A stretch of DNA of 61,889 nucleotides, filler included, from a bacterium (GCA_043817485.1; 8 parts of 8 records of this genome joined end to end with filler, not necessarily neighbours in it); one strand, 5' to 3'. Shown: positions 7,367 to 43,046, counted from the first letter of the whole stretch. A program made the numbers and translations. The notes: generated by a model from the letters alone, not told the origin.

Positions 7367-7475
7367 CTGTGAGTGCCAAGAATACTCCGATCTTAGACGG
7401 AGTATTCTTGGCACAATAATAATATATTTTCCTTGCAGAGAAAATACCTTGCCATTTATGGCGAGGGAGATTCAT
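7367..7475 (+). mobile_element. Two-hairpin IS200/IS605-like non-autonomous element (family P1), intergenic copy A, 109 bp
   Basis: Preceded by TTTAT, ends GATTCAT; similar to 42936-43046, 14207-14305 and 33998-34108. Confidence 0.85.
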
Positions 7476-7477
7476 TT

Positions 7478-8659
7478 TTATAACAAATATTGTTTAATTT
7501 GTTCAATACTTTTTTCTATAACTTTTTTTAATGACGAACTTTTAGTAGATTTTAATAATTCATTATACATTTTTAAAGATTCTTGATAATTTTTATAATT
7601 CTCTTCATAAATTTTGGCTATTCTATATTTTATCCTTTCTTTGAATTGACATTCAGGATAATTATTTAATATTTTTTGGCAAGTTTCAATGCACTTTTTA
7701 TAGTTATTTTTTTCATAATAATACATTGATACCCAAAATAAAGCATCATCACATAAATTACTTTGTGGAAATTGAACAATAAAATTTTCAAAATCTTTTT
7801 TAGACATTTCCAAGTCTCTTTCTGGATTTCTATAATCAAATTTTAGAAAAGCCGTAGCATAAATTATATTTTCTTTATTTTCTGAATCTTTAGTTAAATT
7901 CTCTTTACAAATTTTAAGCGATTCTTCAAATTCTAAATAATCAAACCACATTTTATCAATTTCTTTATATGTTATTAATGGAGTATATTTCATTACTTCT
8001 TGTTCTATACTTCTAAAACAAGTTCTAATATTTGATAAAGCTTTATCTTTGCCTCGTCCTGATTGGCTTTTTTGAAATACTTTAGAATAATATAAAAGTG
8101 CTTTTTCATAATCTGTATATTCTTGTTGATTAAGAATTCCAGCCCAGTATAAACCAGCCATATAAACATCATTATTCCCATACTGACCACCATAAGTCCA
8201 TGGGCTTTTTGGATATTCTTTTTCTAATTTTTCATATTCTTCTACAGCTTTTTTTAATTGATTTATATTATGATAAGACATTGCTATCCAATATTGAGCA
8301 TTAGCTTTTAAATCTGATTTAGGATAAAATTCTATAACTTTTTTAAACTCTAAAATAGCTTTATTATAATCTCTATTTATATTATTGTAATCATAATATA
8401 AATAACCTAAAGCATATTGAGCTTTATCTACATCTTTAGCATTTACATTTTCTTTAATATATTTTTGACAAAATATAATTGCTTTATTAAATTGTTTTTC
8501 TCTCCACAAATTTTCAATTTTTTCAAAACAAATTAATAATTCTGTTTGACTATTAGCACTTTGTATCTCTCCTGATTCATTTTTTACTATTTTTTGGCAT
8601 CCTAAAAATAGTACAATATTAATTATAAATAATAAAAAACTTATTTTTTTTATTATCAT
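7478..8659 (-). CDS. Tetratricopeptide-repeat lipoprotein (BamD/CpoB-like repeats)
   Basis: Lipobox LFLGC; repeated KAQYALG/NAQYWIA/DALFWVS and YPKS motifs. Confidence 0.8.
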   Translation of the reverse strand: MIIKKISFLLFIINIVLFLGCQKIVKNESGEIQSANSQTELLICFEKIENLWREKQFNKAIIFCQKYIKENVNAKDVDKAQYALGYLYYDYNNINRDYNKAILEFKKVIEFYPKSDLKANAQYWIAMSYHNINQLKKAVEEYEKLEKEYPKSPWTYGGQYGNNDVYMAGLYWAGILNQQEYTDYEKALLYYSKVFQKSQSGRGKDKALSNIRTCFRSIEQEVMKYTPLITYKEIDKMWFDYLEFEESLKICKENLTKDSENKENIIYATAFLKFDYRNPERDLEMSKKDFENFIVQFPQSNLCDDALFWVSMYYYEKNNYKKCIETCQKILNNYPECQFKERIKYRIAKIYEENYKNYQESLKMYNELLKSTKSSSLKKVIEKSIEQIKQYLL

Positions 8660-8722
8660 TATACCTCCATTATTATTTTACATTTAGTTTTTTATAAAAC
8701 TTTGATTTTTTTAAATTATATT

Positions 8723-9661
8723 TTACCACTTAAATCCAGTAAAAGTAATTCCTCTAAGAATATATTTTTGAGTAAATAGAAAATATATAAACATAGGAAT
8801 AGAAATAAGTACAGAAAGAGCCATTAATTCATTCCAGCCCAAAGAACTAATATTTCTTACTTGATTAGCAATAGCTAATGCAATAGGTTGCTTACTTTCA
8901 GATTCTAAATAAATTAATGCTGGCAAATAACTGCCCCATGTTCCCATGAAAGTAAAAATCCCTATTACAGCCAATACTGGTTTAGATAAAGGCATAACTA
9001 ATGTAAGAAATATTCTTGTTTCAGAACAACCATCAATTCGAGCTGCATTTAAAAGATCTTCTGGTAACTGATCAAAAAAACTTTTATAAAGCAATAAATT
9101 ATAAACAGATGCACAAGGCAAAATTAATGCCCAATAAGTATTAATAAAATTCAGATAAGGCAATTGAATATTTGTAAAAGGAATATTTGCAAAAGGAAAT
9201 TGTTTCATAATTAAATAAGATGGAATCATTCTAAGTTCGTTTGGAATCATCATTGTAGAAAGAAAAATTAAAAGAATAGTATTGGCAAAAGGTGGTCGTA
9301 ATTTAGATAAAGCATATGCAGCCAAAGGAACAACAGATAATTGAAGAAATATATTAATTACACAAAAAATAATGGTATTGATTAAAAATTGAAAAAAATT
9401 AAAATCTACTAATATTTTGGTATAATTACACCATTTTAATGTTTTGGGAATTAATGTTGGTGGCACTTTTCCAATTTCTGTTACAGATTGCAAAGAACCA
9501 GAAACCATCCATATTAAAGGAACTAATTGAATAAATCCTACAATGAAAACAAATAAATAAATAGAAAAATAAAGAATTTTTAAAGATGGTTTTTTAACAT
9601 CCAAATCAGTAATAAGAGTTTTAGCTCTTGTTTCTTTTTGTTTTTCAATATCTAAAGCCAT
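8723..9661 (-). CDS. Carbohydrate ABC transporter permease (MalG/UgpE-like)
   Basis: EAA loop LLNAARIDGCSETRIF; multiple TM segments. Confidence 0.92.
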   Translation of the reverse strand: MALDIEKQKETRAKTLITDLDVKKPSLKILYFSIYLFVFIVGFIQLVPLIWMVSGSLQSVTEIGKVPPTLIPKTLKWCNYTKILVDFNFFQFLINTIIFCVINIFLQLSVVPLAAYALSKLRPPFANTILLIFLSTMMIPNELRMIPSYLIMKQFPFANIPFTNIQLPYLNFINTYWALILPCASVYNLLLYKSFFDQLPEDLLNAARIDGCSETRIFLTLVMPLSKPVLAVIGIFTFMGTWGSYLPALIYLESESKQPIALAIANQVRNISSLGWNELMALSVLISIPMFIYFLFTQKYILRGITFTGFKW

Positions 9662-9664
9662 TGA

Positions 9665-10573
9665 TTATCCCTCCTGCACATTTTTTTGTTTAAAAACTTT
9701 AAGATTTAAAATAGTAAGAGATAAAGCAACAAAAAATACATAAAATCCCATTGCTGTAGCATATCCCATTTCCATATGAATAAAAGCAGTTTCCCAAATA
9801 TAATAAGTAAGTGTTTGTGAAGCTCCACAAGGACCACCACCAGTTAAAACATAAATTTCACTAAACACATGAAGATTTTTTATTGTTGCCAAAATAAATA
9901 AAGTTTTAATTAAAGGAAGCATTTCTGGTAAAGTAATAAATCGCAATTTATGCCAGATATTAGCACCATCTATTTCTGCAGCTTCATATAATTGTTCTGA
10001 AATTCCTTGTAAAGCTGCAAGATAAATTAACATTTCTCTTCCAGTTCCCATAACTATTCCCATAAAAATAATACACAACTTTACTTGATGAGGATCCATA
10101 AGCCATGATTGTGGAGATAATCCAACTAAATTTAATAAATAATTTAATAATCCAAATTCTGGATTATAAACCCATTTCCAAAAAGCAGCTATAGTAACTC
10201 CAGAACACAAAGATGGTAAATATAAAAATGCTCTCCAAAATGATTGACCTTTTCGTAATTCATTAACTAAAATAGCTAAAATAAGTGGTGGTAAAAATCC
10301 AGCAATAAGACCAACCCATGCAAAATAAAAAGTATTCCACCATGCTTTGAAAAAAATAGGATCTGATAACGCTCGTTTAAAATGAGTGAAGCCAATCCAA
10401 ATATCTTTTCCAGAAAGATAATCATATTGTTTTAATGATGTAGGTATAGATAATAATAATGGAAAAACATTGAAAAAAATAAAAGAAAGAGTGAAAGGAA
10501 GAAGGAAAAAAAAAGCAATAATGTATCTTCCTTTGAATAATTTATTAGCTTTTTGTTTTTCAAAATTGATCAT
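9665..10573 (-). CDS. Carbohydrate ABC transporter permease (MalF/UgpA-like)
   Basis: LYEAAEIDGANIWHKLRFITLP; LTGGGP. Confidence 0.92.
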   Translation of the reverse strand: MINFEKQKANKLFKGRYIIAFFFLLPFTLSFIFFNVFPLLLSIPTSLKQYDYLSGKDIWIGFTHFKRALSDPIFFKAWWNTFYFAWVGLIAGFLPPLILAILVNELRKGQSFWRAFLYLPSLCSGVTIAAFWKWVYNPEFGLLNYLLNLVGLSPQSWLMDPHQVKLCIIFMGIVMGTGREMLIYLAALQGISEQLYEAAEIDGANIWHKLRFITLPEMLPLIKTLFILATIKNLHVFSEIYVLTGGGPCGASQTLTYYIWETAFIHMEMGYATAMGFYVFFVALSLTILNLKVFKQKNVQEG

Positions 10574-10817
10574 TACTTTATTTTCTCCTCTTTTAAAAAA
10601 TATTTGTTAAAATATTTTTCATACTTTTCTAATATTTTTTTACAATTAGCATTTTTATCTAAAAGAACTTCTTGGCAGATATCACTCATTGCTATTTTAA
10701 TTCGATCAAATCCATTACAATAAGGTTCAGCTTTAGCGTTTTTCATAATATTTTCTATTCCTGGAACTGGAATTATATTTGATGGACTAATATATTTAGT
10801 AATATCTAATGTTTTAA
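10573..10817 (-). CDS. 3' fragment of probable ABC substrate-binding protein, cut by contig end
   Basis: Open frame ...NAKAEPYCNGFDRIK...EEKIK* whose TAA overlaps the permease ATG (TAATG); function inferred from context. Confidence 0.55.
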
Positions 10818-10917
10818 NNNNNNNNNNNNNNNNNNNNNNNNNNNNNNNNNNNNNNNNNNNNTTAATTAATTAANNNNNNNNNNNNNNNNNNNNNNNNNNN
10901 NNNNNNNNNNNNNNNNN
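10818..10917. other. Artificial contig linker
   Basis: N44-TTAATTAATTAA-N44, giving stops in all six frames. Confidence 0.98.
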
Positions 10918-10953
10918 AATTGATAAAATTGATAAATTTGAAATGGAGCAAAA

Positions 10954-11403
10954 GTGAATAGATTATCATGGGATCAATATTTTATGGAAATATGTTATTT
11001 AGTATCTAAAAGATCAACTTGTATTAGAAGAAATATTGGAGCAGTTTTAGTTAAAGACAAAAGAATTTTATCTACGGGATATAATGGTGCACCTTCAAAA
11101 ATAGAACATTGTTGTGATAGAGGATGTCTACGACAAAAATTAAATATTCTTTCAGGAGAAAAACATGAACTTTGTAGAGGTCTGCATGCAGAACAAAATG
11201 CTATTATTCAAGCAGGACTTTATGGAATTAATATAAAAAATTCTATTTTATATTGTACTCATCAGCCTTGTATTGTTTGTGCTAAAATGATTATAAATGT
11301 TGGAATTGAAAAAATAATATTTGAAGGAAATTATCCCGATAATTTATCATTAGAAATATTAAAAGAGGCAAATATTGAATTGGTTTTATTTAAAAAACAA
11401 TAA
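10954..11403 (+). CDS. dCMP deaminase family protein (ComEB-like)
   Basis: RSTC, GYNG, HAEQNA and PCIVC zinc-binding motifs. Confidence 0.92.
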
Positions 11404-11767
11404 AGGCGTTACTTTAATTGAGCTATGAATAGTTGTTGCAATTATAGGAATACTTATGTGTTTTGTAATTCCTCAATACCAAAGAATGAAAAAATTGTTG
11501 GCTGTAGATGCTTGTTATGAGGTAATAGAAAAACTTGAAAATGCAAGAAAAAATTATAATAACAATGAAGATGTTAGTTTTGATGAACAATTTGTAGAAA
11601 TTGGTGCTGAAGTAAATCAACAAGAATTAATAAGTAAAGGATATTTAGATAAAATTTATATTTGTCCAGGAGCAAATCCTGAAAATATAACCAATCAAAG
11701 TACTGCTATTTATAGATTTGATCAAGATTTAAAAATATATTGTAGATTTCATGGAAGGCCTCATTAA
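11375..11767 (+). pseudogene. Type IV prepilin-like protein with an in-frame TGA at codon 18 (11426-11428)
   Basis: TTG start after AGAGG gives [32 protein letters not shown], in frame with the 11456 ORF; C-terminal CP...C-x-x-HG. Confidence 0.75.
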
Positions 11768-11819
11768 GTAATTTTATTCGCGATAAATAGCAATTTTTTT
11801 TACAAGAAAAGGAATATTT

Positions 11820-12386
11820 ATGAAACAAACACAATATAAAAGAAAACAAATATTTGTAGATAAAAATAGTCAATTACGATTTGTAAGTATTATTTTGTTT
11901 TTGTTATTAATAAATATGATTGTTGGCTGGACAGTCTATTATACTATATGGGATATTATATCTAATAAAGTAATAAGTCAATCTAATGAAAATAGAGCAT
12001 TTTTTAGTTTCATCTTTGATTTGACAAATTCTATGTTAATAATAAGAGGTATATTTTTATTTATTTTAACTATTTTAATATCTATTTATATTTCTCATAA
12101 AATATTTGGGCCTGTTTATAGAATAAAAAAAACAATAAATGATATTGGACATGGAGATCTTTCAAAAAAAATAAAATTAAGAAAATTTGATGAATTAAAA
12201 GATTTAGTTGAAGTAATAAATCAAATGATTCAAAATCAAAATGAATTAGTAAGTCAACAAATTTTTTTAATCAATAAAATATCTGATATAATTATTAAAA
12301 TGAAAAATAAAGAAATAAATAATTTAGATGAATTAGAAAAAACAGTAAATGAATTACAAGAAATAATTAAAAAATATAAAGTATAG
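11820..12386 (+). CDS. HAMP-domain membrane protein
   Basis: Two TM helices, then SHKIFGPVYRI...GDLSKKIKLRKFDELKDL. Confidence 0.8.
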   Translation: MKQTQYKRKQIFVDKNSQLRFVSIILFLLLINMIVGWTVYYTIWDIISNKVISQSNENRAFFSFIFDLTNSMLIIRGIFLFILTILISIYISHKIFGPVYRIKKTINDIGHGDLSKKIKLRKFDELKDLVEVINQMIQNQNELVSQQIFLINKISDIIIKMKNKEINNLDELEKTVNELQEIIKKYKV

Positions 12387-12400
12387 GAAGAATACCATAA

Positions 12401-12561
12401 AGAATAGAATACAGGAGTCAGAATTCAGAATGAAATTTTGAATTGAAGAATTCCACCCCCTGTCCTAACGGACAACCCCCGCCAGCGGGGGACATTGGGA
12501 ATTTTAATATACTTTTTTGTAGAATTTATTTTCTAACTTTCGCCAGCGGGGGACATTGGGA
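12401..12561 (+). repeat. Composite of heptamer ladder and GC-rich double-hairpin REP (family R1), plus a duplicated half copy at 12541-12561
   Basis: GAATACAGGAGTCAGAATTCAGAATG then CCACCCCCTGTCCTAACGGACAACCCCCGCCAGCGGGGGACA; the unit recurs at 12876-12922, 20348-20395 and 23137-23216. Confidence 0.85.
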
Positions 12562-12567
12562 GCATGA

Positions 12568-12660
12568 AGGAAATAATTAATATTTCACGCCTATGTTGTA
12601 AATTGTCATCTCGACCGAAGGGAGAGATCTATATAAATATAATTAAAAATTAGGAATTAT
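12568..12660 (+). repeat. About 95-bp dispersed repeat (family R3)
   Basis: Matches the reverse complement of 5398-5497. Confidence 0.75.
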
Positions 12661-12748
12661 ATCTGCAAAATTTGTCCTTGCTAATATACAAAGAGAATTT
12701 AAAATACAAGATAAAATACAGAAAATTTTTGTTATAAAAGGAATTTAT

Positions 12749-13186
12749 ATGAAAATTGAAGAAATTGCAAAAAAATTATATTTATATACTAAATTGCATT
12801 CAAAATGATAACAAGGCGGCAAGGAGAAGGCGACAAATATAACTTGTGCGAACACGTAGACAGAAAAATGTATTAAAGAATTCCACCCCTGTCCTAACGG
12901 ACACCCCCGCCAGCGGGGGACATAAGAAGCCAACACAGTTAGCATTTGAATGCGACTTGGTATTAGTGCTGCAATTATTAGCATTGGATTATGTTATATG
13001 GAAAAGGAAGAAGTAAATAAACGATGTAATGAATTTTATAAAAAATTTATTGAAAAGTATAAAAATACTTGTTGTCGAGGATTAACTAAACAATGGAAAG
13101 ATAATTTTGCAATTTCTGAAAGAAAAAATTTTTGTGCAAAAATAATTCAAGAAATGATAATAGAACTTGAAAAAATATTAAAATAG
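12749..13186 (+). pseudogene. C_GCAxxG_C_C-family (putative redox) protein interrupted by MITE M1
   Basis: RBS-ATG MKIEEIAKKLYL, then the MITE, then SAAIISIGL...FYKKFIEKYKNTCCRGL...CAKII; the expected central Cys segments are missing. Confidence 0.6.
12787..12962 (+). mobile_element. TA-bounded MITE M1 carrying an R1 REP
   Basis: 18-bp imperfect TIR: TACTAAATTGCATTCAAA and TTTGAATGCGACTTGGTA (3 mismatches). Confidence 0.85.
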
Positions 13187-13194
13187 GAGTAAAA

Positions 13195-14796
13195 ATGAAC
13201 TCTTTTAAAGAAAAATTACAAAATAAATTTGTAATAACTTGTGAATTTGTTCCTGGAAGAGGATCAAAAGAAAAAAGCATTGATGAAGTAATAGAATTTG
13301 CAAAACAAGCAAAAGAAAAAAAATTACCAATTGATGCTATTAGTATTACTGATAATCCAGGTGGAAATCCAGCTATTAGTCCTGATGTTTTAGGAAAAGA
13401 ACTTTTAGATATTGGAATTGAGCCACTAATTCATTTTTCTTGTGCTAATAATAATAGAAATTTCATAGAATCACGTGCTTATGCTTTAGCTCGTCAAGGC
13501 ATTAATAATTTATTAGTAGTTACTGGAGATTATCCTACAAGCGGTTATAAAGGAATGGCTAAACCAAGTTTTGATATGGATTCTGTTCAATTAATTGAAT
13601 ATTTAAAACAAATGAATAATGGATTAAAAATTCCAAGTTTTAAAAAAGATTTTGAAATACTTTCTCCAACAAATTTTGTAATTGGTTGTGCAGTATCTCC
13701 TTTTAAAAAAACAGAAGCAGAACTTTTAACACAATTTTTTAAATTAGAAAAAAAAATAAAATCTGGAGCTGATTTTATTATTCCACAATTAGGATATGAT
13801 TTTATAAAAATTATGGAAATAATAAAATACCTAAAATATAAAAATATAAATTTACCTATTTTAGGAAATGTCTATGTAATGACTTTATCTGTTGCTAAAT
13901 TGATGAATAAAAATTTTATTCCTGGATGTATAATTACAGATGAATTTTTGAAAAAATTAACTGAAGAATCAAAATCAAGCGATAAAGGAAAAAATGCAAA
14001 ATTAGAAAGAGCTTCACAAATGGTAGCAATATTTAAAGGATTAGGATTTAATGGTGTTCATATTGGAGGTTTTGGCTTAAAAATATCTGATATAGAATTT
14101 ATACTTTCCAGATCTAAAGAAATAGAAAATTCTTGGCAAAATTATCTTGAAAATTTTCAATATAATCAACAAAATGAATTTTATTTATTTTCAAAAGATT
14201 TTTCATCTGGAAGTCCCAAAAATACCCCGTCTCTTGAAACAGGAATGAATTGTCACAATCCCTTGCAGAGAAAATCTCCCGCTATTTATGAAAAGGAAAA
14301 TTCATTAGAAAAATTAAAATTAAATAAAAAAACAAAGTTTAAAAAATCTATTTGTTTTCAAATGATGAAAATATTTCATAACTTAATGTTTGAATCTATA
14401 GGTTTATATATTGGCAAAAAAATTTCTCCTATTTTAGAAAAAAATAAATTTTTATATAAAATTAGCTATTGTTTAGAAAAAATTTCCAAACAAATTCTTT
14501 TTGATTGTCAAGAATGTGGTGATTGTGCTCTTCCAGATACTGCATATTTTTGTCCAATGTCGCAATGTGCTAAATTTCAAAGAAATGGACCCTGTGGTGG
14601 TAGTTATCACGGATTTTGTGAAGTTCATAAAGAAAAAAGATGTGTTTGGACTTTAATTTATGAACGGCTTTCTGCAGAAAATAAATTATCTCTTATAGAA
14701 AAAGAAATTATTCCTCCACCAAATGTTTCTTTATCTCATACTTCTTCTTGGACAAATTTTTTTATGGAAAAAGATCATACAAGTAAAAAAAATTAA
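13195..14796 (+). CDS. metF: Methylenetetrahydrofolate reductase-family protein fused to a C-terminal Cys-rich MTHFR_C (MetV-like) domain; carries an in-frame P1 insert
   Basis: ITDNPGG, LLVVTGD, KIKSGADFIIPQLGYD, then CQECGDC...CPMSQCAKFQRNGPCGGS...CEV...CVW. Confidence 0.85.
   Translation: MNSFKEKLQNKFVITCEFVPGRGSKEKSIDEVIEFAKQAKEKKLPIDAISITDNPGGNPAISPDVLGKELLDIGIEPLIHFSCANNNRNFIESRAYALARQGINNLLVVTGDYPTSGYKGMAKPSFDMDSVQLIEYLKQMNNGLKIPSFKKDFEILSPTNFVIGCAVSPFKKTEAELLTQFFKLEKKIKSGADFIIPQLGYDFIKIMEIIKYLKYKNINLPILGNVYVMTLSVAKLMNKNFIPGCIITDEFLKKLTEESKSSDKGKNAKLERASQMVAIFKGLGFNGVHIGGFGLKISDIEFILSRSKEIENSWQNYLENFQYNQQNEFYLFSKDFSSGSPKNTPSLETGMNCHNPLQRKSPAIYEKENSLEKLKLNKKTKFKKSICFQMMKIFHNLMFESIGLYIGKKISPILEKNKFLYKISYCLEKISKQILFDCQECGDCALPDTAYFCPMSQCAKFQRNGPCGGSYHGFCEVHKEKRCVWTLIYERLSAENKLSLIEKEIIPPPNVSLSHTSSWTNFFMEKDHTSKKN
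14207..14305 (+). mobile_element. P1 element copy C, 99 bp, in frame inside metF
   Basis: Reads SGSPKNTPSLETGMNCHNPLQRKSPAIYEKENSL; aligns to 42936-43046 with a single 12-bp deletion. Confidence 0.88.
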
Positions 14797-14862
14797 AAAG
14801 TTAATTAATTTGTGATTACACAAAATTGTAGACTTAAAACAATAGGTTTAAAATTTTTTTAA

Positions 14863-17312: not shown

Positions 17313-17457
17313 AGAGATAGGAATAATAAATTTGAAATATTCGAATGACAAAAATATGAATGTTTCAAATAAATGGTAAATTGGAAATTGAAAATAAATA
17401 CAAATAATCAAAAAATGAGAATTGAATTTTGAAAATTCGTAGGGGGGCAATTCATGC

Positions 17458-17573
17458 AGACTGTGTCATAATTCAATTTCACGGCAATTGTTTTACAACA
17501 TAAAGGGTAGGTTTCCACAAAACCACAATATGTTGTGGTATGGATGTCTAGATTTAGAGTTATGACACAGTCT
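17458..17573. mobile_element. 116-bp MITE with perfect 14-bp TIR (family M2)
   Basis: AGACTGTGTCATAA...TTATGACACAGTCT; left flank is half of a GTAG-type REP (GTAGGGGGGCAATTCATG). Confidence 0.75.
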
Positions 17574-17646
17574 CATAGATGATCATTTTAAAAATATATC
17601 TACGAATAGAGTTATGTCTTTATATATAATATGATGAGGTGCTGGT

Positions 17647-17746
17647 NNNNNNNNNNNNNNNNNNNNNNNNNNNNNNNNNNNNNNNNNNNNTTAATTAATT
17701 AANNNNNNNNNNNNNNNNNNNNNNNNNNNNNNNNNNNNNNNNNNNN
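17647..17746. other. Artificial contig linker
   Basis: N44-TTAATTAATTAA-N44. Confidence 0.98.
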
Positions 17747-17747
17747 G

Positions 17748-18551: not shown

Positions 18552-18591
18552 AATGCTATATTTTTGTCAATAATAATTATCAAATGTTTTC

Positions 18592-31398: not shown

Positions 31399-31531
31399 TT
31401 TTATTTCTTTAATAATATTTTTTATTTCACAAAATATTCTTTTAAATAATTTTTTCTATAACAATATTTGTGATCATTTTTTTAACCAATTTTTTTACAA
31501 CAAAGCCAAATAACAAAAATTACATAAAAAA

Positions 31532-32710: not shown

Positions 32711-32713
32711 GCA

Positions 32714-33574: not shown

Positions 33575-33614
33575 TATTATTTCCTTAATCATACACAATA
33601 TTTTAAATAATTCT

Positions 33615-34700
33615 TTATAATTTCTTTAAAAACCATTGCCATGATGTTTTTATTATAAATTCAATATCTTCACATTGTCTTTTCCAACCTAATTCTTTTT
33701 TAATTTTTTCTGAACTGGCAATTAAAACTGGAATATCTCCTTCTCTTCGAGAAGTTATTTTAACCAAAACTTTTTTTTTAGTTACTTTTTCTACTTTATC
33801 AATTATTTCTTTAACAGAAAATCCTTTTTCACTTCCTAAATTATAAATTTTACTTTCACAATTTTTATTTAATAAATATTCTAATGCTAAAATATGAGCT
33901 TGTGCTACATCATTTACATAAATATAATCTCTAATACAAGTACCATCTTTTGTTAAATAATCATCTCCATAAATTTCAAAAATTTCTCTTTTTTCTAATG
34001 AATCTACCACACCATAAATGGAGGGGGATCTTCTCTGTAAGGAAAATATATTATTATTGTGCCAATCCATCCCCGTCTCAAAAGACGGGACATTCTTGGC
34101 ACTCCCAGATAAACTTTTTAAAATTTTTGGAATAAGATGTGTTTCGGGATTATGATTTTCTCCAATTTTACCAGATGGCTCAGCTCCTGCAACATTAAAA
34201 TACCGTAAAGCAATATACTTTAATCCATAAGCTTTATCAAAATCTTCTAATATTTGCTCTATTATTAATTTAGTTTTTCCATAAGGATTTATTGGTTTTG
34301 TTTTTTCATTTTCTTTAATAGGAATTTCTTCAGGAATACCATAAACTACTGCAGTTGAAGAAAAAATAATTTTTTTAACATTATGTTTTATCATTGAATC
34401 AAGAAAATTTAAACAATTAACAACATTATTTCGATAATATTTATTTGGATTTTTTATAGATTCTTCTACAGAAGTATTAGCAGCAAAATAAATTACAAAT
34501 TCTATTTGATTTTCTTGAAAAATCCTTTCCATTAAATTAATATCACCAATATTCCCTTGTATAAATTCTCCATAAAGTACATGTTCTTTTTTGCCTTGAC
34601 TTAAATCATCAACAACAATAATAAAATATCCCTTTTCTCCTAACATTTTCACTACATGAGATCCAATATAACCTGCTCCACCTGCAACTAAAACTTTCAT
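33615..34700 (-). CDS. galE: UDP-glucose 4-epimerase with an in-frame 37-codon P1 insert
   Basis: GGAGYIGSH, YGKTK, LRYFNVAGA, ETHLIP, DGTCIRDYI. Confidence 0.93.
   Translation of the reverse strand: MKVLVAGGAGYIGSHVVKMLGEKGYFIIVVDDLSQGKKEHVLYGEFIQGNIGDINLMERIFQENQIEFVIYFAANTSVEESIKNPNKYYRNNVVNCLNFLDSMIKHNVKKIIFSSTAVVYGIPEEIPIKENEKTKPINPYGKTKLIIEQILEDFDKAYGLKYIALRYFNVAGAEPSGKIGENHNPETHLIPKILKSLSGSAKNVPSFETGMDWHNNNIFSLQRRSPSIYGVVDSLEKREIFEIYGDDYLTKDGTCIRDYIYVNDVAQAHILALEYLLNKNCESKIYNLGSEKGFSVKEIIDKVEKVTKKKVLVKITSRREGDIPVLIASSEKIKKELGWKRQCEDIEFIIKTSWQWFLKKL
33998..34108 (-). mobile_element. P1 element copy D, 111 bp, in frame inside galE
   Basis: TTTAT|CTGGGAGTGCCAAGAATGTCCCGTC...GTAGATTCAT; reads SGSAKNVPSFETGMDWHNNNIFSLQRRSPSIYGVVDSL. 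Confidence 0.92.
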
Positions 34701-34706
34701 TAAAAA

Positions 34707-35414: not shown

Positions 35415-35441
35415 ATAAACCTCCTAAATTTAATTTTTATA

Positions 35442-35599
35442 TTATTTTTTAAAATTTAAAATATTTTTAAAATTAATCCATGTTTTTTTAATATCTTTTT
35501 GAATTTTTGAAATTTCTTCAAGCAATCTTTTAATTTCTTCATCTTCTTTCTTTTTTAAATTTTCAATAAATTCTATAAAGAAAATCCATAATATTCCTA
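35442..35599 (-). CDS. 3' fragment of a hypothetical protein at contig end
   Basis: Open frame ...GILWIFFIEFIENLKKKEDEE...NFKK*. Confidence 0.4.
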
Positions 35600-35699
35600 N
35601 NNNNNNNNNNNNNNNNNNNNNNNNNNNNNNNNNNNNNNNNNNNTTAATTAATTAANNNNNNNNNNNNNNNNNNNNNNNNNNNNNNNNNNNNNNNNNNNN
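35600..35699. other. Artificial contig linker
   Basis: N44-TTAATTAATTAA-N44. Confidence 0.98.
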
Positions 35700-35700
35700 T

Positions 35701-36133
35701 GATATTGATTGTAAAATAATTCAATCAAATATGCAAGTTAATTATATAGATATTTTAGATTTAATGGCAGAATTTCAAAAAAAAATCTCTTTTATTTTTA
35801 CAAACAGGTGGAGTTCATTCATCAGCTTTATGTAATTTAAAAAATATAGAACTTTTTACTGAAGATATAGGTAGACATAACGCTATTGATAAAATATTTG
35901 GTGAATGTTTAATGAAAAATATAGATACAAGTGATAAAATTATTTTAACAAGTGGTAGAATTTCCTCAGAAATTTTATTAAAAGTTGTAAAACGAAATAT
36001 TTCAATTATTATCTCTCGATCAGCTCCTACAGATTTGGCTATAAATATAGCAGAAAAAATGAGAATTACATTAATTGGTTTTGTTAGAGGTAATCGAATG
36101 AATATTTATACTCATAAATTTAGAATTTTATAA
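35701..36133 (+). CDS. fdhD: FdhD sulfurtransferase, 3' part, with an apparent +1 frameshift in an A9 tract (35777-35785)
   Basis: TGGVHSSAL, EDIGRHNAIDK, TSGRISSE, SRSAPT, LIGFVRG. Confidence 0.85.
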
Positions 36134-36231
36134 AATAATTTGTTTTACAAAACTTATTCTTGACAAAAAAAATAGTATATAATAATTTTTAAACATAACA
36201 AAATAATTAAATAAAACTTGAGAAAAAAATA

Positions 36232-36906
36232 ATGATTTCTATTGTCATACCAGTTTTTAATGAAAAAAATACAATATTAAAAATATTGGAAAAAATACAA
36301 AAAATTAATTTAGAAAAAGAAATTATTATTGTAGATGATGGTTCTACTGATGGTACTAAAGAAATTCTTCAAAACATAAAAGAAAATAATATTAAAATTT
36401 TATATCATTCTAAAAATCAAGGAAAAGGCGCTGCTTTAAAAACAGGATTTAATGAAGTAAAAGGAGATATAATAATAATTCAAGATGCAGATTTAGAATA
36501 TGATCCAGAGAATTATTTTATTTTAATTAAACCTATTAAAGAAGGTTATGCAGATGCAGTTTATGGCTCTCGTTTTTTAGGAATTCATAGAGTTTTTTTG
36601 ATATGGCATTATTTGGGAAATAAATTTTTAACTGGCATAACTAATATTTTATATAATACTACTTTATCTGATATGGAAACTGGAGCAAAAGTTTTTAAAA
36701 CAGAAATAATAAAAAATATTACAATAAAATCTAAAAAATTTGATATTGAACCAGAAATTACAGCAAAAATTTTAAAACAAAATATAAGACTTTATGAAGT
36801 TCCTATTTCTTATTATGGAAGAGATTATAAAGAAGGTAAAAAAATAACTTGGAAAGATGGTATAAAAGCAATATATGTCTTAATTAAATATAGATTTTTT
36901 GATTAA
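36232..36906 (+). CDS. Family 2 glycosyltransferase (DPM1-like)
   Basis: IPVFNE, DDGSTDG, GKGAA, QDADLEYDP, DMETG. Confidence 0.9.
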   Translation: MISIVIPVFNEKNTILKILEKIQKINLEKEIIIVDDGSTDGTKEILQNIKENNIKILYHSKNQGKGAALKTGFNEVKGDIIIIQDADLEYDPENYFILIKPIKEGYADAVYGSRFLGIHRVFLIWHYLGNKFLTGITNILYNTTLSDMETGAKVFKTEIIKNITIKSKKFDIEPEITAKILKQNIRLYEVPISYYGRDYKEGKKITWKDGIKAIYVLIKYRFFD

Positions 36907-36922
36907 AAAGGAGATATTTAGT

Positions 36923-37147
36923 ATGAAATTAGAACAATTAGATATGTTGGAAAAATTAGAACAATTAGATACATTAGAAACTAAAATAAATAATCTTATT
37001 TCTTCTTATGAAAAAATAAAAGAAGAAAATGTTTTTTTACAAGAAGAAATAAATAAATTAAAAACAGAAAAAGATAATGTAAAAACAAAAATTAAAGATT
37101 TAATTTCAAAAATAGATCAATATTCTGAAATAGATAAATTCATATAA
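36923..37147 (+). CDS. Small coiled-coil protein, ZapB-like
   Basis: AGGAG RBS; LEQLDTLETKINNLI...LKTEK; short internal duplication (KLEQLD twice). Confidence 0.5.
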   Translation: MKLEQLDMLEKLEQLDTLETKINNLISSYEKIKEENVFLQEEINKLKTEKDNVKTKIKDLISKIDQYSEIDKFI

Positions 37148-37224
37148 TCCAAAGTTGCAATTAATTGCTAACTGTATTGGTCTTATCGTCGAATCCTTAT
37201 TATTATTTTGATTGCATTTTGGTA
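37145..37224 (-). mobile_element. Minimal, cargo-free copy of MITE M1 (about 80 bp)
   Basis: Both M1 ends nearly adjacent: AAGTTGCAATTAATTGCTAACTGTATTGG and CCTTATTATTATTTTGATTGCATTTTGGTA. Confidence 0.65.
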
Positions 37225-37253
37225 TAAAAATCAAAAAAAAGGAAATAAAAAAA

Positions 37254-37841
37254 ATGCCACAAATAACAGTTCAATTAGGTGAAGAAATAGTTGATAAATA
37301 TATTTTAAAAAAGCGTGTTATTTATATTGGTAGAGACAAAAATAATGATATTGTTTTGGATAATTTATTAGTTTCTCGAAAACATGCAAAAATAAAACAA
37401 GAAAAAGGTGGAATTTATATATTAACAGATTTAAAAACTCCAAATAAAACTTTTTTAAATGGACAAGAAATTACTGAATGTGAAATTAAAGATGAGGATA
37501 AAATTAGTATTTGTCATCATACCTTGCTATTTAATATAGATAAAAGAATTGGACATAGAGGAATGTGGAAACCTGAACAAAAAGAAGGAACAATGATGTT
37601 TTCTTCTTTACAAGAAAAAGAAAAAGCTTTAAAAGAAGAAGTAGAAAATCTTATGAAAATAAAAGAAACAAAAGAAATGTCAGAAAAAGAATATAAAGAA
37701 CATCTTGATAAAATAGAAAATGTGCCAATAAGAAATTTTCAACCAAAACCAAAAAATAAAACATTTGGTTTAACATTTTTTCTAATATTACTTATTATTA
37801 TTGCTATAATATATACTATTTATCTTTTATTTTTTCAATAA
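37254..37841 (+). CDS. FHA-domain protein with C-terminal TM anchor
   Basis: IGRDKNNDIVL, VSRKHAKI, NKTFLNG; hydrophobic C-terminus. Confidence 0.85.
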   Translation: MPQITVQLGEEIVDKYILKKRVIYIGRDKNNDIVLDNLLVSRKHAKIKQEKGGIYILTDLKTPNKTFLNGQEITECEIKDEDKISICHHTLLFNIDKRIGHRGMWKPEQKEGTMMFSSLQEKEKALKEEVENLMKIKETKEMSEKEYKEHLDKIENVPIRNFQPKPKNKTFGLTFFLILLIIIAIIYTIYLLFFQ

Positions 37842-37927
37842 GGGATATAAATTAAAAAAAAATGGCTATATCACACCAGCAAAAACACATTTATCAAAAA
37901 ATTCAAGAAAAAAATTAACAAATATGA

Positions 37928-38328
37928 TGAACCGACGATTTGAATCGTCGGTTCAAAATCGTGATTTAAGCATAAGAAGCACATATAGCATATTATACTA
38001 ATCTCAATAAAAGTGCTATAGTTATAGTGTTGCTACTGATTATCTCAATTGTGTAATCTGAAAGTTTGTCATTTCGACGATAGGAGAAATCTCATATCTA
38101 AGAGTATCACTAAATGGAGAAGAGAGAAGAAAAACAATCTGGTTGTTGCTGTTAATCATGAATAGAAAAATTTAATTGAAGGGTGATGAGATTTCTCACT
38201 TCGTTTCGAAATGACAAAAGCCATTTGAAATGATAAGAATGCTTAATAACAAAAGCTGTTTGAAATGAGAGATTTCTCATTTTGAGTTTGTGTAGGTGAA
38301 CCGACCGACGATTTGAATCGTCGGTTCA
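37928..38328. repeat. REP cluster: R2 palindromes (37928-37955, 38297-38328) bracketing an inverted R3-type pair (38066-38095, 38186-38217)
   Basis: TGAACCGACGATTTGAATCGTCGGTTCA twice; TTGTCATTTCGAC..GAGAAATCTCAT and ATGAGATTTCTC..TCGAAATGACAA. Confidence 0.85.
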
Positions 38329-38409
38329 AGGTGAAGAATTTCAACTCTTGACAATATAAAACATCTTAAATGCAATTTGACATTAAACAATGTTAAAATA
38401 CAATTTTAA

Positions 38410-38605
38410 CTAAATTTTAATTCTTTTTTCACTTCTTACAATTTTATTAATTACATTAATATAAGATAAAATACTTGCTTCAATAACATCTGTACTTGTG
38501 GCTCTACTTGAATAAATTTTATTTTTATAATCAACTTTAATAGAAGATTCTCCTAAAGCATCTTTTTCAGCAGTTATTGATTTGATTGAATAATCAATAA
38601 GTTTA
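38410..38605 (-). CDS. leuA: 2-isopropylmalate synthase, C-terminal regulatory-domain fragment
   Basis: LIDYSIKSITAEKDALGESSIKV...ATSTDVIEASILSYINVINK; cut by contig end. Confidence 0.8.
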
Positions 38606-38705
38606 NNNNNNNNNNNNNNNNNNNNNNNNNNNNNNNNNNNNNNNNNNNNTTAATTAATTAANNNNNNNNNNNNNNNNNNNNNNNNNNNNNNNNNNNNNNN
38701 NNNNN
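38606..38705. other. Artificial contig linker
   Basis: N44-TTAATTAATTAA-N44. Confidence 0.98.
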
Positions 38706-38711
38706 AAAATA

Positions 38712-40109
38712 ATGAATATTTTGCTAATAAATCCTTCTTTTAATCTAAAAGAACAATATGGCGAAGCAGGAAAAATTCTTTCTTTACGACTTCCAATGGG
38801 ACTTTTATATATTGCTACTTATTTAGAAAAACAAGGTGTTAATGTAAAAATAGTTGATGCTCAAATACAAGAATTATCTAAAATTTTTTTTGAAAAATAT
38901 TTTGAGCATTTTCTTCCAGATATTGTTGGAATAAGTGCTTGTACACCTACTTTTCATGAAGCTCTTCGTATTTTATCCATAATAAAATCTATCTCTCCAA
39001 GTATAAAAACTTCTATGGGTGGAATACATCCTTCTTTTTTTTCAGAAAATGTTTTAAAACATAATGAAGTTGATTTTGTAATAAGAGGGGAAGGAGAAAT
39101 TACTTTTTGGGAATCTATCAATAAAAATTTTGATTTAACAGGAATAGATGGAATTTCTTATAAAAATGATAATGGAATTGTTATTCATAATAAAGATCGT
39201 GTTCCAATTTCTAATTTAGATATTCTTCCTTTTCCAAATAGAAAACTTCTTCCTTTTGAAAAATATGTAGAAACAATTATTACTTCTCGAGGATGTCCTT
39301 TTAATTGTATTTTTTGTTCAGCTAAAAATATTTTAGGAGAAAAATATAGAACAAGAAGTGCTTTAAATGTAGTAGAAGAAATAGGTTCTTTTATTGAAAA
39401 TGGAACTACTTTTTTCTTTGTTCTTGATGATAATTTTTGTGTTAATAAAAAAAGAGTTGAAGAAATATGTTTGCTTCTAATTCAAAAAAATTATCATAAA
39501 AAAATTGAATGGGGATGTGAAACAAGAGTAGATTTAGTAGATGAAAAAATGTTGAATTTAATGAGAAAATCTGGTTGTATAAGAATATTTTTTGGATTAG
39601 AAACACATTCTCAAAAATTATTAGATACATTAAATAAAAATGTAAAAATAGAAGAAAATGAAAAAGCAGTTAAATTAGCACAAAAATCTGGTATGGAGGT
39701 AAGAGGAAGTTTTATTTTGGGAATACCAGGTGAAACAAAAGAAGAATCTATAAAAACAATAAAATATGCTAAAAAATTAAAATTAACAGAAGCAAAATTT
39801 TCTCTAATAACTCCATATCCAGGAACAAAATTATTTGAAATAGCTCAAAATGAAGGATTGAAAATAACAGAACAAGATTGGCCACAATTAAGTACAGTTT
39901 CTGGTTTTAGTAATTATCAACCTGTTTATGTTCCTAAAGGAAGAAATAAAAAAGAACTTGTTAGATTACAAATGAGAGCATATTTAGAATTTTATTTACA
40001 ATTTTATCAGATTAAAAGAATATACAAAGAAATAAAAAGTATAAAGGATTTCTTTAAGTTTTTCAAAATATTTATAGATATAATTATGAAAATGGTTAAA
40101 AAAAGATGA
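38712..40109 (+). CDS. Cobalamin-binding radical SAM protein
   Basis: PMGLLYIA, GGIHPS, RGEGE, SRGCPFNCIFC. Confidence 0.9.
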   Translation: MNILLINPSFNLKEQYGEAGKILSLRLPMGLLYIATYLEKQGVNVKIVDAQIQELSKIFFEKYFEHFLPDIVGISACTPTFHEALRILSIIKSISPSIKTSMGGIHPSFFSENVLKHNEVDFVIRGEGEITFWESINKNFDLTGIDGISYKNDNGIVIHNKDRVPISNLDILPFPNRKLLPFEKYVETIITSRGCPFNCIFCSAKNILGEKYRTRSALNVVEEIGSFIENGTTFFFVLDDNFCVNKKRVEEICLLLIQKNYHKKIEWGCETRVDLVDEKMLNLMRKSGCIRIFFGLETHSQKLLDTLNKNVKIEENEKAVKLAQKSGMEVRGSFILGIPGETKEESIKTIKYAKKLKLTEAKFSLITPYPGTKLFEIAQNEGLKITEQDWPQLSTVSGFSNYQPVYVPKGRNKKELVRLQMRAYLEFYLQFYQIKRIYKEIKSIKDFFKFFKIFIDIIMKMVKKR

Positions 40110-40269
40110 TTTTTGTAATTATTTTTATAAATTTTAAAATTAAAAATATTAGGGGTTTAATGCGAAAAATAAGCAATAACTAAAACTAATTTTTGTAAAA
40201 TCAAAAAATTAGTTTTAAACATCATAATTTATTACAACATAAATTCAAATTTATAAAATTTTTAATGGT

Positions 40270-40902
40270 GTGAAAGCAGTTTTTAATGGACATGATCATG
40301 TTTATCAAAGAACACATCAAATAGATAAAGATGGGAATCAAGTTTCTAATGGTATTTATAATGTAACAGTATCTGGTGGGAATAGTATGCGTTGGCAGGA
40401 AAGTTTATGGATGGCAAAATTTCTCAATAAATACAAAGGAAATGATGCTACTGATGTTCCACTTGTAGGAATATGGCCAGGTTGGCAGGGTGCAGTTTAT
40501 ATGATGATAAATGGAGATAAAGCAATTATTGAAGAATTTAATTCTGATTCTAATTATAGAAAAGATGATTCATTTATAATGACAGTAGAAAACACTTCTT
40601 TAAATTATGATAAAAATTCAATGAATTTATCTAAAATTGAAAATTACCCAAATCCATTTAATCCCGAATGTTATATCCCATTAGAAATCTCAAACAACAA
40701 ATCTTCAAATAATACTAAAATAAAAATATACAATATATTAGGCCAAGTAGTTAGAGAAGTAATTACAAACAATGCAAGTAATTCAGTATATTGGGATGGA
40801 AGAGATAATTTAAGAAAAGAAGTTTCATCTGGAATGTATTTTTATGAAACAATTATAAATAACAAAACACAAAATTGTAAAAAAATGCTGATGTTGAAGT
40901 AA
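40270..40902 (+). pseudogene. N-terminally truncated metallophosphoesterase with FlgD-Ig / T9SS-type-A-like C-terminal domain
   Basis: Starts at the last family motif VFNGHDHVYQR with earlier motifs absent; ends NYPNPFNP...IKIYNILGQVVR...WDGRD...SSGMYFY...KKMLMLK. Confidence 0.6.
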
Positions 40903-40906
40903 AAAC

Positions 40907-40949
40907 TATAACTTGTAGAGATGTAAAAGTTTTGCATCTCTACAAGTTA
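40907..40949 (+). terminator. Strong hairpin (GTAG-type REP-like) after the 40270 ORF, probable terminator
   Basis: ATAACTTGTAGAGATG-TAAAAGTTTTG-CATCTCTACAAGTTAT. Confidence 0.65.
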
Positions 40950-40989
40950 TTAAAAAGTGTTATTTTAATTAAAAGGAGAATAAACAAAA

Positions 40990-41274
40990 ATGAATAAAAA
41001 AGTTGGCATAGGTGTTTTAGGAGCAGGTCCTTTAAATATGACACATCATATTCCATCTATTGTTAACAATCCAAATTGTTCTTTTGAAATGCTTTGTGAT
41101 TTGAATGAAGAACGATTAAAAAAATGTAATAACCTTTACCATCCTAAAAAATTAACTACTAATTATGATGAAATGCTAAATGATCCTGATATAGATTTAA
41201 TTTTTATTGCTACAGTTCCACATCTCCAATATGATTTAGCTAAAAAATCTATTGAAGCCAATAAACATACTTTT
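40990..41274 (+). CDS. Gfo/Idh/MocA oxidoreductase, 5' fragment
   Basis: IGVLGAG, CDLNEE, DPDIDLIFIAT, AKKSIEANKH. Confidence 0.85.
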
Positions 41275-41374
41275 NNNNNNNNNNNNNNNNNNNNNNNNNN
41301 NNNNNNNNNNNNNNNNNNTTAATTAATTAANNNNNNNNNNNNNNNNNNNNNNNNNNNNNNNNNNNNNNNNNNNN
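41275..41374. other. Artificial contig linker
   Basis: N44-TTAATTAATTAA-N44. Confidence 0.98.
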
Positions 41375-41583
41375 CCTGTATCTATTATTGAAACACTATC
41401 ACTCCATTCATTAGCCACATATACCTTAGTTCCTAATACACATAAGGCACTTGGACCTAATCCATTTACTTTATTTCCATTAGGAATAAGATTTATAGTA
41501 TCAACAACTTTTATTTCTCCATAACTTATATTCATTGTTACACATAATAAAAGAACTAAACTAAAAAATATTTTTTTAAACAT
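41375..41583 (-). CDS. Exported YVTN/YncE-type beta-propeller protein, 5' fragment
   Basis: Signal peptide MFKKIFFSLVLLLC; KVYVANEWSDSVSIIDT repeat. Confidence 0.75.
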
Positions 41584-41623
41584 TTTTGCTCCTTTTTCCC
41601 TAATAAATTTAAAATTATAAATT

Positions 41624-42916
41624 TTATTTTCCAAATCGTTTATAAATAAATTCTAAATTTTTCATTTTTTCATCATCAAAAATATTTCTACCATCAATTA
41701 TAATAGGTTTTTTTAACAATTTTTTTATTTTTTCTAAATCTAATTCTTTAAATTCTTGCCATTCAGTACATATTACTAAACAATCACTATCTTGTGCTAC
41801 TTCATAAGGAGTATCACAAAAAGTGACATTGGTAAGTATTTTTTTTGCTTTTGGCATACTTACTGGATCATAAAATTTAATATTACAATTTTCTTTTTGA
41901 AGCATTTCAATAATATAAAGAGAAGAAGCTTCTCTAAGATCATCTGTATCGGGTTTAAAAGAAAGTCCAAGTATTCCTATGGTTTTATTAGAAAGAATCC
42001 AAAGTGCATCTTTTATTTTTTTAACTAACTGTTCTTTTCTTTTTTTATTTATTGCTAATGTGTCTTCAAGAAAATTAAAATTTACACCTGTTTCTTTAGC
42101 AATTTTAATAAAAGCAGATAAATCTTTAGGAAAACAAAAACCACCAAATCCTAATCCAGCTTTTAAACTAGAACATCCAATTCTTTTATCAGTACCCATT
42201 CCAAATGCTACTTTTTCAATATCTGCTCCAATTTTTTCACATAAATCTGAAATTACATTTATATAAGAAATTTTCATTGCTAAAAAACAATTAGAAGCAT
42301 GTTTAATTAATTCAGCACTATTGATATCAGTAACAATAATTAAAGAATTTAAAGGAGCATATAATTCTTTTAAAATTTTTTCTGCTTTTTCTGATTCCAC
42401 TCCTATAACAATTCTATCTGGTTTCATAAAATCTTGAACTGCACTACCCTCTCGTAAAAATTCTGGATTAGAAGCCAAATCAAAATCTAAATGTTCATTT
42501 TGATGAATTTTTATAGTATGTTTTACCCAAAGATTAGTTTTTATTGGAACTGTTGATTTTTCTACAATAAGTTTATATCCATTCATTTTTTTAGCAATTA
42601 TTTTTGAAACATCTTCAATAGCACTAAGATCTGCTTCTCCATTTTCTAAAGGAGGAGTTCCTACTGCTATAAAAATTATATCTGATTCTTTTATTGCTGT
42701 ATCTATATCAGTAGTAAAAAATAATTTATTCGCAAGTTTATTTTTTATTATTAATTCTGATAAACCTGGTTCATAAATTGGACATATTCCTTGTTCTAAT
42801 AAAAAAATTTTTTCTTGATCTTGATCAACACAAATAACTTTATTTCCTAATTCTGCAAAACAAGCTCCAGAAACTAACCCTATATAACCTGTTCCAATAA
42901 TACAAATTTTATGCAT
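41624..42916 (-). CDS. ugd: UDP-glucose 6-dehydrogenase
   Basis: IGTGYIG, KSTVP, NPEFLREG, GFGGFCFPKD, FKPDTDDLRE, DGRN. Confidence 0.95.
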   Translation of the reverse strand: MHKICIIGTGYIGLVSGACFAELGNKVICVDQDQEKIFLLEQGICPIYEPGLSELIIKNKLANKLFFTTDIDTAIKESDIIFIAVGTPPLENGEADLSAIEDVSKIIAKKMNGYKLIVEKSTVPIKTNLWVKHTIKIHQNEHLDFDLASNPEFLREGSAVQDFMKPDRIVIGVESEKAEKILKELYAPLNSLIIVTDINSAELIKHASNCFLAMKISYINVISDLCEKIGADIEKVAFGMGTDKRIGCSSLKAGLGFGGFCFPKDLSAFIKIAKETGVNFNFLEDTLAINKKRKEQLVKKIKDALWILSNKTIGILGLSFKPDTDDLREASSLYIIEMLQKENCNIKFYDPVSMPKAKKILTNVTFCDTPYEVAQDSDCLVICTEWQEFKELDLEKIKKLLKKPIIIDGRNIFDDEKMKNLEFIYKRFGK

Positions 42917-42935
42917 TTTTTTTATTCCTTTTTAT

Positions 42936-43046
42936 CTGTGAGTGCCAAAAATACCCCGTCTCTTGAGACGGGAATGAATTGGCACAATAAAAATATATTT
43001 TCCTTGCAGAGAAAATACTCCGCCATTTATGGCGGAGGAGATTCAT
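42936..43046 (+). mobile_element. P1 element copy B, 111 bp, intergenic, best-preserved copy
   Basis: TTTAT|CTGTGAGTGCCAAAAATACCCCGTCTCTTGAGACGGG...TGGCAC...CTCCGCCATTTATGGCGGAGGAGATTCAT. Confidence 0.9.

Follow-up and report, generated by a model that had tools for sequence, protein, structure and literature searches.

In-frame palindromic repeats in bacterial coding sequences are best known from Rickettsia. The Rickettsia palindromic elements (RPEs; Ogata et al. 2000) are approximately 150 bp long, form ten families with 44 insertions in R. conorii, and lie in frame in unrelated, apparently functional metabolic genes, to which they add a common peptide at positions compatible with the protein fold (PMC10969869, PMC3733652). 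A second group, the palindrome-associated transposable elements (PATEs), is defined by the lack of terminal repeats, palindromes near the termini, insertion without target duplication, and a length too short to encode a transposase, and has been linked to IS605-type transposons (PMC3119063). In this study, we analyzed a repeat that resembles the PATEs in its ends and the RPEs in its location in genes. It is 111 nucleotides (nt) long in two of its four copies and is found in a stretch of 61,889 nt (filler included; referred to below as the window) from a free-living-type, AT-rich groundwater bacterium (GCA_043817485.1).

The insertion sequence (IS) to which the ends of this repeat were compared is IS608 of Helicobacter pylori. 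IS608 inserts 3' of TTAC and is cut on the left at this tetranucleotide, 19 nt 5' of its left palindrome, and on the right at TCAA, 10 nt 3' of its right palindrome (PMC3201880). Guide sequences located 5' of the palindromes (AAAG and GAAT) pair with the cleavage sites, the first guide base with position -3 and the second with position -4 (PMC5934647); the pairing of AAAG with TTAC suggests that the fourth guide base pairs with position -1. Other small repeats differ in design. Tagged repetitive extragenic palindromes (REPs) are palindromes of 20 to 40 bp with an unpaired GTAG or CGTC at one end, and the available part of PMC3733652 names no dedicated transposase for the CGTC-tagged class, which includes RPE-4 and RPE-6. 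[quoted passage not shown] In-frame MITE fusions have been described as "not unusual," and ERIC, BOX, QMITE1, and the MITEb and MITEe elements of Anabaena are, like the present element, small non-autonomous repeats with an open frame and occasional in-frame fusions (PMC10969869).

The element is a real dispersed repeat family. An earlier note on this DNA, made from the sequence alone, had located four copies, namely, copy A (7367-7475, plus strand), copy C (14207-14305, plus strand), copy D (33998-34108, minus strand), and copy B (42936-43046, plus strand). All four were recovered by nhmmer with a profile built from them, at 42930-43048 for B (E value of 2e-39), 34113-33996 on the minus strand for D (1e-38), 7361-7476 for A (4e-35), and 14201-14307 for C (5e-28). 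There was no fifth credible match in the window, a peptide-profile search of its six reading frames retrieved the same four copies and nothing more, and the search for partial copies at contig ends gave just chance matches of 8 to 13 nt. Counted from the first base 3' of the TTYAT flank through the final TTCAT, copies B and D have the length of 111 nt that the note had assigned to the element, whereas A comprises 109 nt and C, owing to a 12-nt in-frame deletion with respect to B and D, 99 nt. Pairwise identities range from 69 to 85%, B being nearest to the consensus, and the G+C content of the copies is 39 to 43%, compared to 24% for the window. The flanks were as claimed in all four cases: A, B, and D are preceded by TTTAT and C is preceded by TTCAT, and each copy ends in TTCAT; the pentamers TTTAT and TTCAT together occur at approximately 1.1% of the window positions. 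The four copies thus have a conserved target of 4 to 5 nt 5' of the insertion and a conserved terminal oligonucleotide, as PATEs do. Copies A and B are intergenic and antisense to the minus-strand genes on either side, and copies C and D are located in sense orientation and in frame within genes. The last two have derived substitutions in common (CTGG... and ...TC-CCC) that are not found in A or B. This likeness of C and D (14195-14320 and 33985-34125), which extends to their insertion sites on both sides, could be due to a source variant that they have in common, to a preference for a longer target, or to chance. Each copy is on a different contig, since the window contains seven identical spacers (N44-TTAATTAATTAA-N44; 10818-10917, 17647-17746, 35600-35699, 38606-38705, 41275-41374, 48540-48639, and 57672-57771), each composed of 44 N, TTAATTAATTAA, and 44 N, which reveal eight contigs of a draft assembly that were joined artificially; gene order across the spacers is consequently without meaning.

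The anatomy of the element is best described for copy B. On its left, an outer 7-bp stem (GTGCCAA/TTGGCAC; 42942-42948 with 42979-42985) surrounds an internal loop and an inner palindrome of 7 to 8 bp (CCCGTCTC/GAGACGGG; 42955-42972), the foot of which is 19 nt from the left end. A conserved AT-rich spacer is followed on the right by a CCTTGCAGAGAAAAT box, a 7-bp palindrome (CTCCGCC/GGCGGAG; 43018-43037), and 9 nt ending in TTCAT, so that the foot of the right palindrome is 9 nt from the right end, or 10 nt without its outer C-G pair. AATA boxes are present 5' of the left palindrome (42950-42953; alignment columns 15 to 18) and 5' of the right palindrome (43014-43017), and AATAC precedes both. 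The inner left and the right palindrome are identical at 14 of 21 aligned positions (common ATAC-YCCGYC...GRCGG), and such mutually similar near-terminal palindromes are another property of PATEs. Terminal inverted repeats were found in none of the copies: when the first 35 nt were locally aligned with the reverse-complemented last 35 nt, the scores were 5 to 7, which were reached by 18 to 78% of 500 shuffles.

The hairpins differ in their state of preservation among the copies. The two hairpin sequences quoted in the earlier note are exact in B. In D, the left one is near-exact and kept, and the right one is partly degraded; in C, both are degraded; and in A, both are variants that still pair. 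In the left hairpin of copy A (7373-7414), the internal loop has been replaced by a perfect 17-bp stem, its 3' arm having changed to fit the 5' arm, and the loop falls 2 nt short of that in the other copies. The impression is that of a stem with one arm copied from the other. Folding z-scores of the single strand versus shuffles were -10.3 for A, -7.2 for B, -3.2 for D, and +0.6 for C, so that the intergenic copies have strong hairpins and the intragenic copies decayed ones. On the four-copy alignment, 73% of the cells of the structure pair, as opposed to 39 to 46% when the partners are slid, which supports the register. The G-T wobbles in the right hairpin of A and the inner left hairpin of D pair solely on the plus strand, i.e., the strand on which TTYAT lies 5' of the element and which would be expected to be the active one. 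The mRNA of the flanking genes corresponds to the other strand.

The most informative insertion is that of copy D, which adds 37 amino acids (aa) to the UDP-glucose 4-epimerase GalE (361 aa; 33615-34700, minus strand). On either side of the insert, GalE can be aligned with solved epimerases, and the insert measures exactly 37 aa when compared to 8wxk and 4twr. The 119 best homologues listed are all between 318 and 342 aa long, and the insert is present in none of them. Columns that are invariant in an alignment of 44 sequences, including S114, S115, Y140, and K144 of the query, have been kept. An AlphaFold2 model based on this alignment had a mean predicted local distance difference test (pLDDT) score of 88.7 and a predicted template modeling score of 0.86; only residues 201 to 236, located between the helix 189-203 and the strand 240-244, were below a pLDDT of 50, and the insert is hence modeled as a disordered excursion. 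Because TTA is present at both junctions, two insertion models can be formulated for this copy: (i) an insertion of 111 nt without duplication, with ...ILKSLLEKRE... as the empty site, and (ii) an insertion of 114 nt composed of the element and a TA/TTA duplication, with an empty site that is one residue shorter. Among the 111 homologues with a match to the motifs HLIP and GxDY (8 of the 119 had no motif match), 109 have a spacing of 21 residues between the two and the other 2 a spacing of 20. Removal of 111 nt from galE restores a spacing of 21, whereas a duplication of 2 to 3 nt requires 20, and the first model also recreates the string L-E-K-R-E that is found in the homologue P0010. The homologue spacing favors the prediction that copy D was inserted without target duplication.

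Copy C is located in an MTHFR-DUF5981 fusion (533 aa; 13195-14796, plus strand), in which PF02219 covers residues 9 to 290 and PF12225 residues 427 to 510. It corresponds approximately to residues 338 to 370 and adds some 33 aa to the linker between the two domains. In 5 genomes, the best matches have MTHFR and DUF5981 as separate open reading frames (ORFs) in the opposite order and are not comparable as an empty site. In a genome labeled Elusimicrobia (G003; L084 and L087), the two ORFs are separate but adjacent, and that of DUF5981 is the upstream one. The two host genes appear to be functional, as judged from the intact ORFs and, for GalE, from the retained invariant residues and a model that is confident outside the insert.

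Both intragenic copies are sense oriented, use the same frame, are stop-free, and enter after the first codon base. Their lengths (111 nt for D and 99 nt for C) are divisible by 3, and neither is frameshifted. The peptide common to both is S-G-S-x-K-N-x-P-S-x-E-T-G-M-x-x-H-N...L-Q-R-x-S-P-x-I-Y. As the earlier note had stated, copy B has no stop codon in the frame that C and D use; one antisense frame is open too, i.e., 2 out of 6. In copy A, this frame is not open throughout because of the 2 nt missing from the loop. Palindromic repeats in frame within apparently functional ORFs, a feature of RPEs, were observed for 2 of 2 intragenic copies, both in intact genes. In-frame peptide insertion as a behavior of the element, as claimed in the earlier note, is based on only these two copies; with 2 of the 6 frames open and a unit of 111 nt, which is a multiple of 3, survivorship alone would give the same picture. 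We infer that the insert in GalE is tolerated and that it may be translated.

We give about an even chance to the reading that the repeat is a PATE-type non-autonomous element, composed of the fused ends of an IS200/IS605-like IS without a transposase gene of its own. The earlier note had proposed an IS200/IS605-derived, PATE-like origin, and the lack of terminal inverted repeats, the near-terminal palindromes, the TTYAT flank, and the GalE spacing speak for it, whereas an autonomous partner was not among the 59 ORFs of the window. Like the PATEs of Haloquadratum walsbyi, the element has no room for a transposase gene, no terminal inverted repeats, similar near-terminal palindromes, and a conserved terminal oligonucleotide, and the likeness may extend to insertion without target duplication, as judged here from one site (PMC3119063). 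The Haloquadratum elements differ in being archaeal and in their connection to IS605-type transposons that reside in the same genome and have matching palindromes, and in-frame coding inserts are not described for them in the available part of PMC3119063. In comparison to IS608, the cleavage sites would be TTAT on the left (TTAC in IS608) and TCAT on the right (TCAA in IS608), and the palindrome feet lie 18 to 19 nt (19 nt in IS608) and 9 to 10 nt (10 nt in IS608) from the left and right ends, respectively (PMC3201880, PMC5934647). The tetranucleotide located 5' of each palindrome, AAAG and GAAT in IS608, is AATA twice (PMC5934647), and these AATA boxes could be candidate guides for the TTAT and TCAT ends. 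With the pairing rule of IS608, AATA could form all 3 of 3 possible canonical pairs at the left end (with T-4, T-3, and T-1 of TTAT) and 2 of 3 at the right end. Unlike the present element, IS608 contains tnpA and tnpB, and the left palindrome is here nested in a larger stem. The RPEs resemble the element in the type of genes and positions occupied and in the shared peptide; the hosts differ, Rickettsia in one case and the groundwater bacterium with its two intragenic copies in 62 kb in the other, and nothing points to homology in this comparison by description.

According to this reading, a Y1 HUH transposase (TnpA) encoded elsewhere in the genome would bind the two similar near-terminal hairpins on the plus ("top") strand and cut 3' of the left flanking TTYAT and 3' of the right terminal TTCAT. 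A single-stranded circle of 111 nt would be excised and then pasted 3' of another TTYAT in single-stranded DNA, without duplication of the target. Because the unit measures 37 codons, with one of the three sense frames stop-free, landing after the first codon base in a tolerant surface loop (GalE) or interdomain linker (MTHFR-DUF5981) would not inactivate the gene. Intragenic copies would persist as translated inserts of 33 to 37 aa with decaying hairpins, and copies at operon junctions would keep their hairpins. Of this scheme, we infer the involvement of a transposase, movement as a single strand, the use of AATA as a guide, and the translation of the inserts. The more specific proposal of a lineage-private PATE family that is mobilized by a Y1 HUH enzyme via single-stranded circles and, by virtue of its unit length and open frame, colonizes coding sequences as well as operon junctions is a tentative one that we consider rather doubtful. 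At the level of the family, the repeat is apparently undescribed, as the earlier note had assumed, whereas PATEs and RPE-like in-frame repeats are both in print; in a limited literature search on passages of papers, none was found to combine ends of the IS200/IS605 type with coding inserts like those of the RPEs.

A number of observations weigh against an IS200/IS605-like origin. (i) Neither a Y1 transposase nor TnpB is encoded by the 59 window ORFs, and since no relative was found in the collections searched, nothing ties these ends to a known IS. (ii) The argument against a target duplication is indirect and concerns a single site, GalE, no true empty site was seen, and B and D are flanked by TTA...TTA, as a 3-nt duplication would also give. 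(iii) On the 3' side of the insertion, C and D have an identical stretch of 8 nt (TAGAAAAA), and their 5' flanks are similar as well. (iv) A larger hairpin encloses the left palindrome but not the right one. (v) The guide fit requires a left foot shifted one base to an earlier position than that of IS608, and an A-C mismatch remains at the right end; as the left foot was chosen after seeing the sequence, the fit is a lead and not a test. (vi) Three compensated pairs were detected, but 206 of 500 shuffles reach this number; covariation is thus not significant and cannot be demonstrated with only four copies. (vii) Identities of only 69 to 85% give no sign of recent activity. The case is thin, consisting of four old, diverged copies, two of which are intragenic, and lacking both a partner transposase and a second genome.

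Several other explanations have to be weighed against the same data. The junctions could be those of a hairpin-rich MITE moved by a DDE transposase (e.g., IS630/Tc1-like) that duplicates TA or TTA, the likeness of TTYAT and TTCAT being then part duplication and part element. The identical TTA (or TA) on both sides of B and D agrees with this idea, a net insertion of 114 nt would also be in frame, and 2 of the 111 motif-matching GalE homologues do have the shorter loop; the other 109 favor a net insertion of 111 nt, the putative duplication is mismatched in A (TTA/TTT) and C (TCA/TTA), and no copy has terminal inverted repeats. We regard this explanation as improbable, and a DDE-mobilized MITE of the classical type was rejected on account of the missing terminal inverted repeats and the duplication that is disfavored at the GalE site. 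REP-associated tyrosine transposases (RAYTs) also belong to the HUH Y1 superfamily. A REP- or REPIN-like repeat handled by a domesticated single-copy RAYT would account for hairpin repeats in operon junctions, and Table 1 of PMC3733652 gives a "+" for intragenic units in both tagged REP superfamilies. RPE-4 and RPE-6 are classed there with the CGTC-tagged REPs, and the inner left stem of our element contains CGTC; this sequence is an unpaired end tag in RPE-4 and RPE-6, whereas it is base-paired here, in a unit of 111 nt instead of the 20 to 40 bp of tagged REPs (PMC3733652). Furthermore, the element has two different hairpins in direct orientation, and a RAYT gene is not present in the window, so that we consider this origin unlikely. 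Taken with the PATE-type reading, movement by an HUH Y1 enzyme is the most likely of the explanations considered. A GTAG- or CGTC-tagged REP in the strict sense was rejected, given the unit of 99 to 111 nt, its two different hairpins, and the presence of CGTC only within the paired inner left stem.

Integration of a small circle through a site-specific recombinase (a tyrosine or serine integrase or an IS110/IS1111-type enzyme) via a short core, TTYAT or AT, would produce the same junctions, with TTYAT on the left, TTCAT on the right, a net gain of 111 nt, and no net duplication. What keeps this model alive is the similarity of the C and D sites on both sides (AAAAG..TTYAT|TAGAAAAA), which suggests target recognition over more than 5 nt and which, on the 3' side, is unexplained by the 5' target recognition of the IS608 type. 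The flanks of A and B lack TAGAAAAA on the 3' side, a recombinase gene was not found in the window, and the similar near-terminal hairpins at IS608-like spacing would have no role; we therefore assign a low probability to this model. Lastly, the repeat might be a structured RNA module (terminator, attenuator, or mRNA stabilizer) that was copied into operon junctions by recombination and is not mobile. Copies A and B indeed occupy precisely the gap from a stop codon to the following ribosome-binding site, and on the transcribed minus strand of copy B (42954-42973 and 43018-43037), both hairpins are followed by T-runs, corresponding to 2 terminator-like sites versus 0.1 expected. The same type of scan detected no terminator-like site in copy A, C and D are within unrelated coding genes and in the opposite orientation relative to transcription, and the G-T wobbles pair only on the plus strand instead of on the mRNA strand of the flanking genes. 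Rfam matches at the gathering score were confined to three tRNAs in the window, and at E values up to 10, there were only generic hairpin matches around B and A that were far below the threshold. An RNA module is consequently very improbable. A group I intron or IStron, an intein, and translational bypass were set aside because the unit measures 111 nt, is stop-free, and is in frame.

To return to the IS200/IS605-like, PATE-type reading, its partner and its relatives were sought in the window and in sequence collections. The 59 window ORFs scanned contained no domains of a Y1 transposase (PF01797), TnpB, a DDE transposase, or a recombinase. An exact pattern of the right half had no match in the genome contigs (GTDB species representatives), a longer exact pattern had none in the JGI metagenome contigs, and copy B had no blastn match in plasmids or phages. 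Scans with the peptide alignment yielded 95 pattern-matching stretches in metagenome contigs and 8 in viral contigs, of which none was confirmed. Among 1.84 billion representative proteins, the peptide profile matched two, of 1,551 and 4,644 aa; the former, which was the better match, is repeat-rich and was judged from its sequence to be a chance match, and no matched stretch was listed for the latter. In a collection of 5.8 billion protein clusters, a search with the GalE region retrieved only GalE itself among 3 candidates, and a search with the peptide alignment retrieved, out of 1,045 candidates, no proteins other than the two of the window, although finding none is weak evidence in that collection. 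These searches were strict or word based, and diverged relatives could therefore have been missed. The host itself has no close relative among the genomes searched: for its V-ATPase A subunit, identity to the genome-contig matches does not exceed 67%, and its ArgS is at most 48% identical to the matches listed (150 of approximately 430) from 401 sampled genomes (phylum labeled Omnitrophota). Three runs of one groundwater metagenome study hold small parts of one contig, with a word share of at most 0.17.

The intergenic copies occupy two junctions of minus-strand genes. Copy A is found in the junction 7351-7477, between the stop of a gene for a TPR protein (7478-8659) and the start of the gene for the V-type ATPase A subunit (5593-7350), and copy B in the junction 42917-43045, between the stop of a glycosyltransferase gene (43046-44038) and the start of a UDP-glucose dehydrogenase gene (41624-42916). 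Each fills the gap between the stop codon and a ribosome-binding-like AAAGGAA plus start codon, and approximately 18 nt would be left at either junction if the element were removed; at junction A, AAAGGAA abuts the left end of the element. Elsewhere in the window, a protein of 210 aa (40270-40902) has a type IX secretion C-terminal sorting domain, which, along with a BamD-like TPR protein, DUF3108, and an ATPase of the type II secretion/type IV pilus family, points to a diderm of an uncultured lineage. ORFs that cover only part of their family occur near contig ends, namely, the C-terminal 71 residues of FdhD (35912-36133), the C-terminal part of MgsA (56367-57014), the middle domain of a Mur ligase (57720-58322), and the N-terminal fold of a GFO/IDH protein (40990-41322). 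They are probably cut by contig ends, although the distance of the MgsA ORF to the closest contig end exceeds 600 nt.

If the PATE-type reading is correct, this element would be the first link between the peel-and-paste transposition of the IS200/IS605 type and the RPE-like "selfish DNA in proteins." It would also provide a mechanistic model for the spread of peptide-donating palindromic repeats, the mobilization of which is unexplained in Rickettsia. The combination of RPE-like behavior with IS608-like ends would make the mechanism testable, by assaying TnpA on top-strand oligonucleotides. The rule for survival in genes would be simple: the length is divisible by 3, one frame is open, and the element enters at codon phase 1. 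For uncultured AT-rich lineages, it follows that gene annotation can hide peptide inserts that are derived from repeats.

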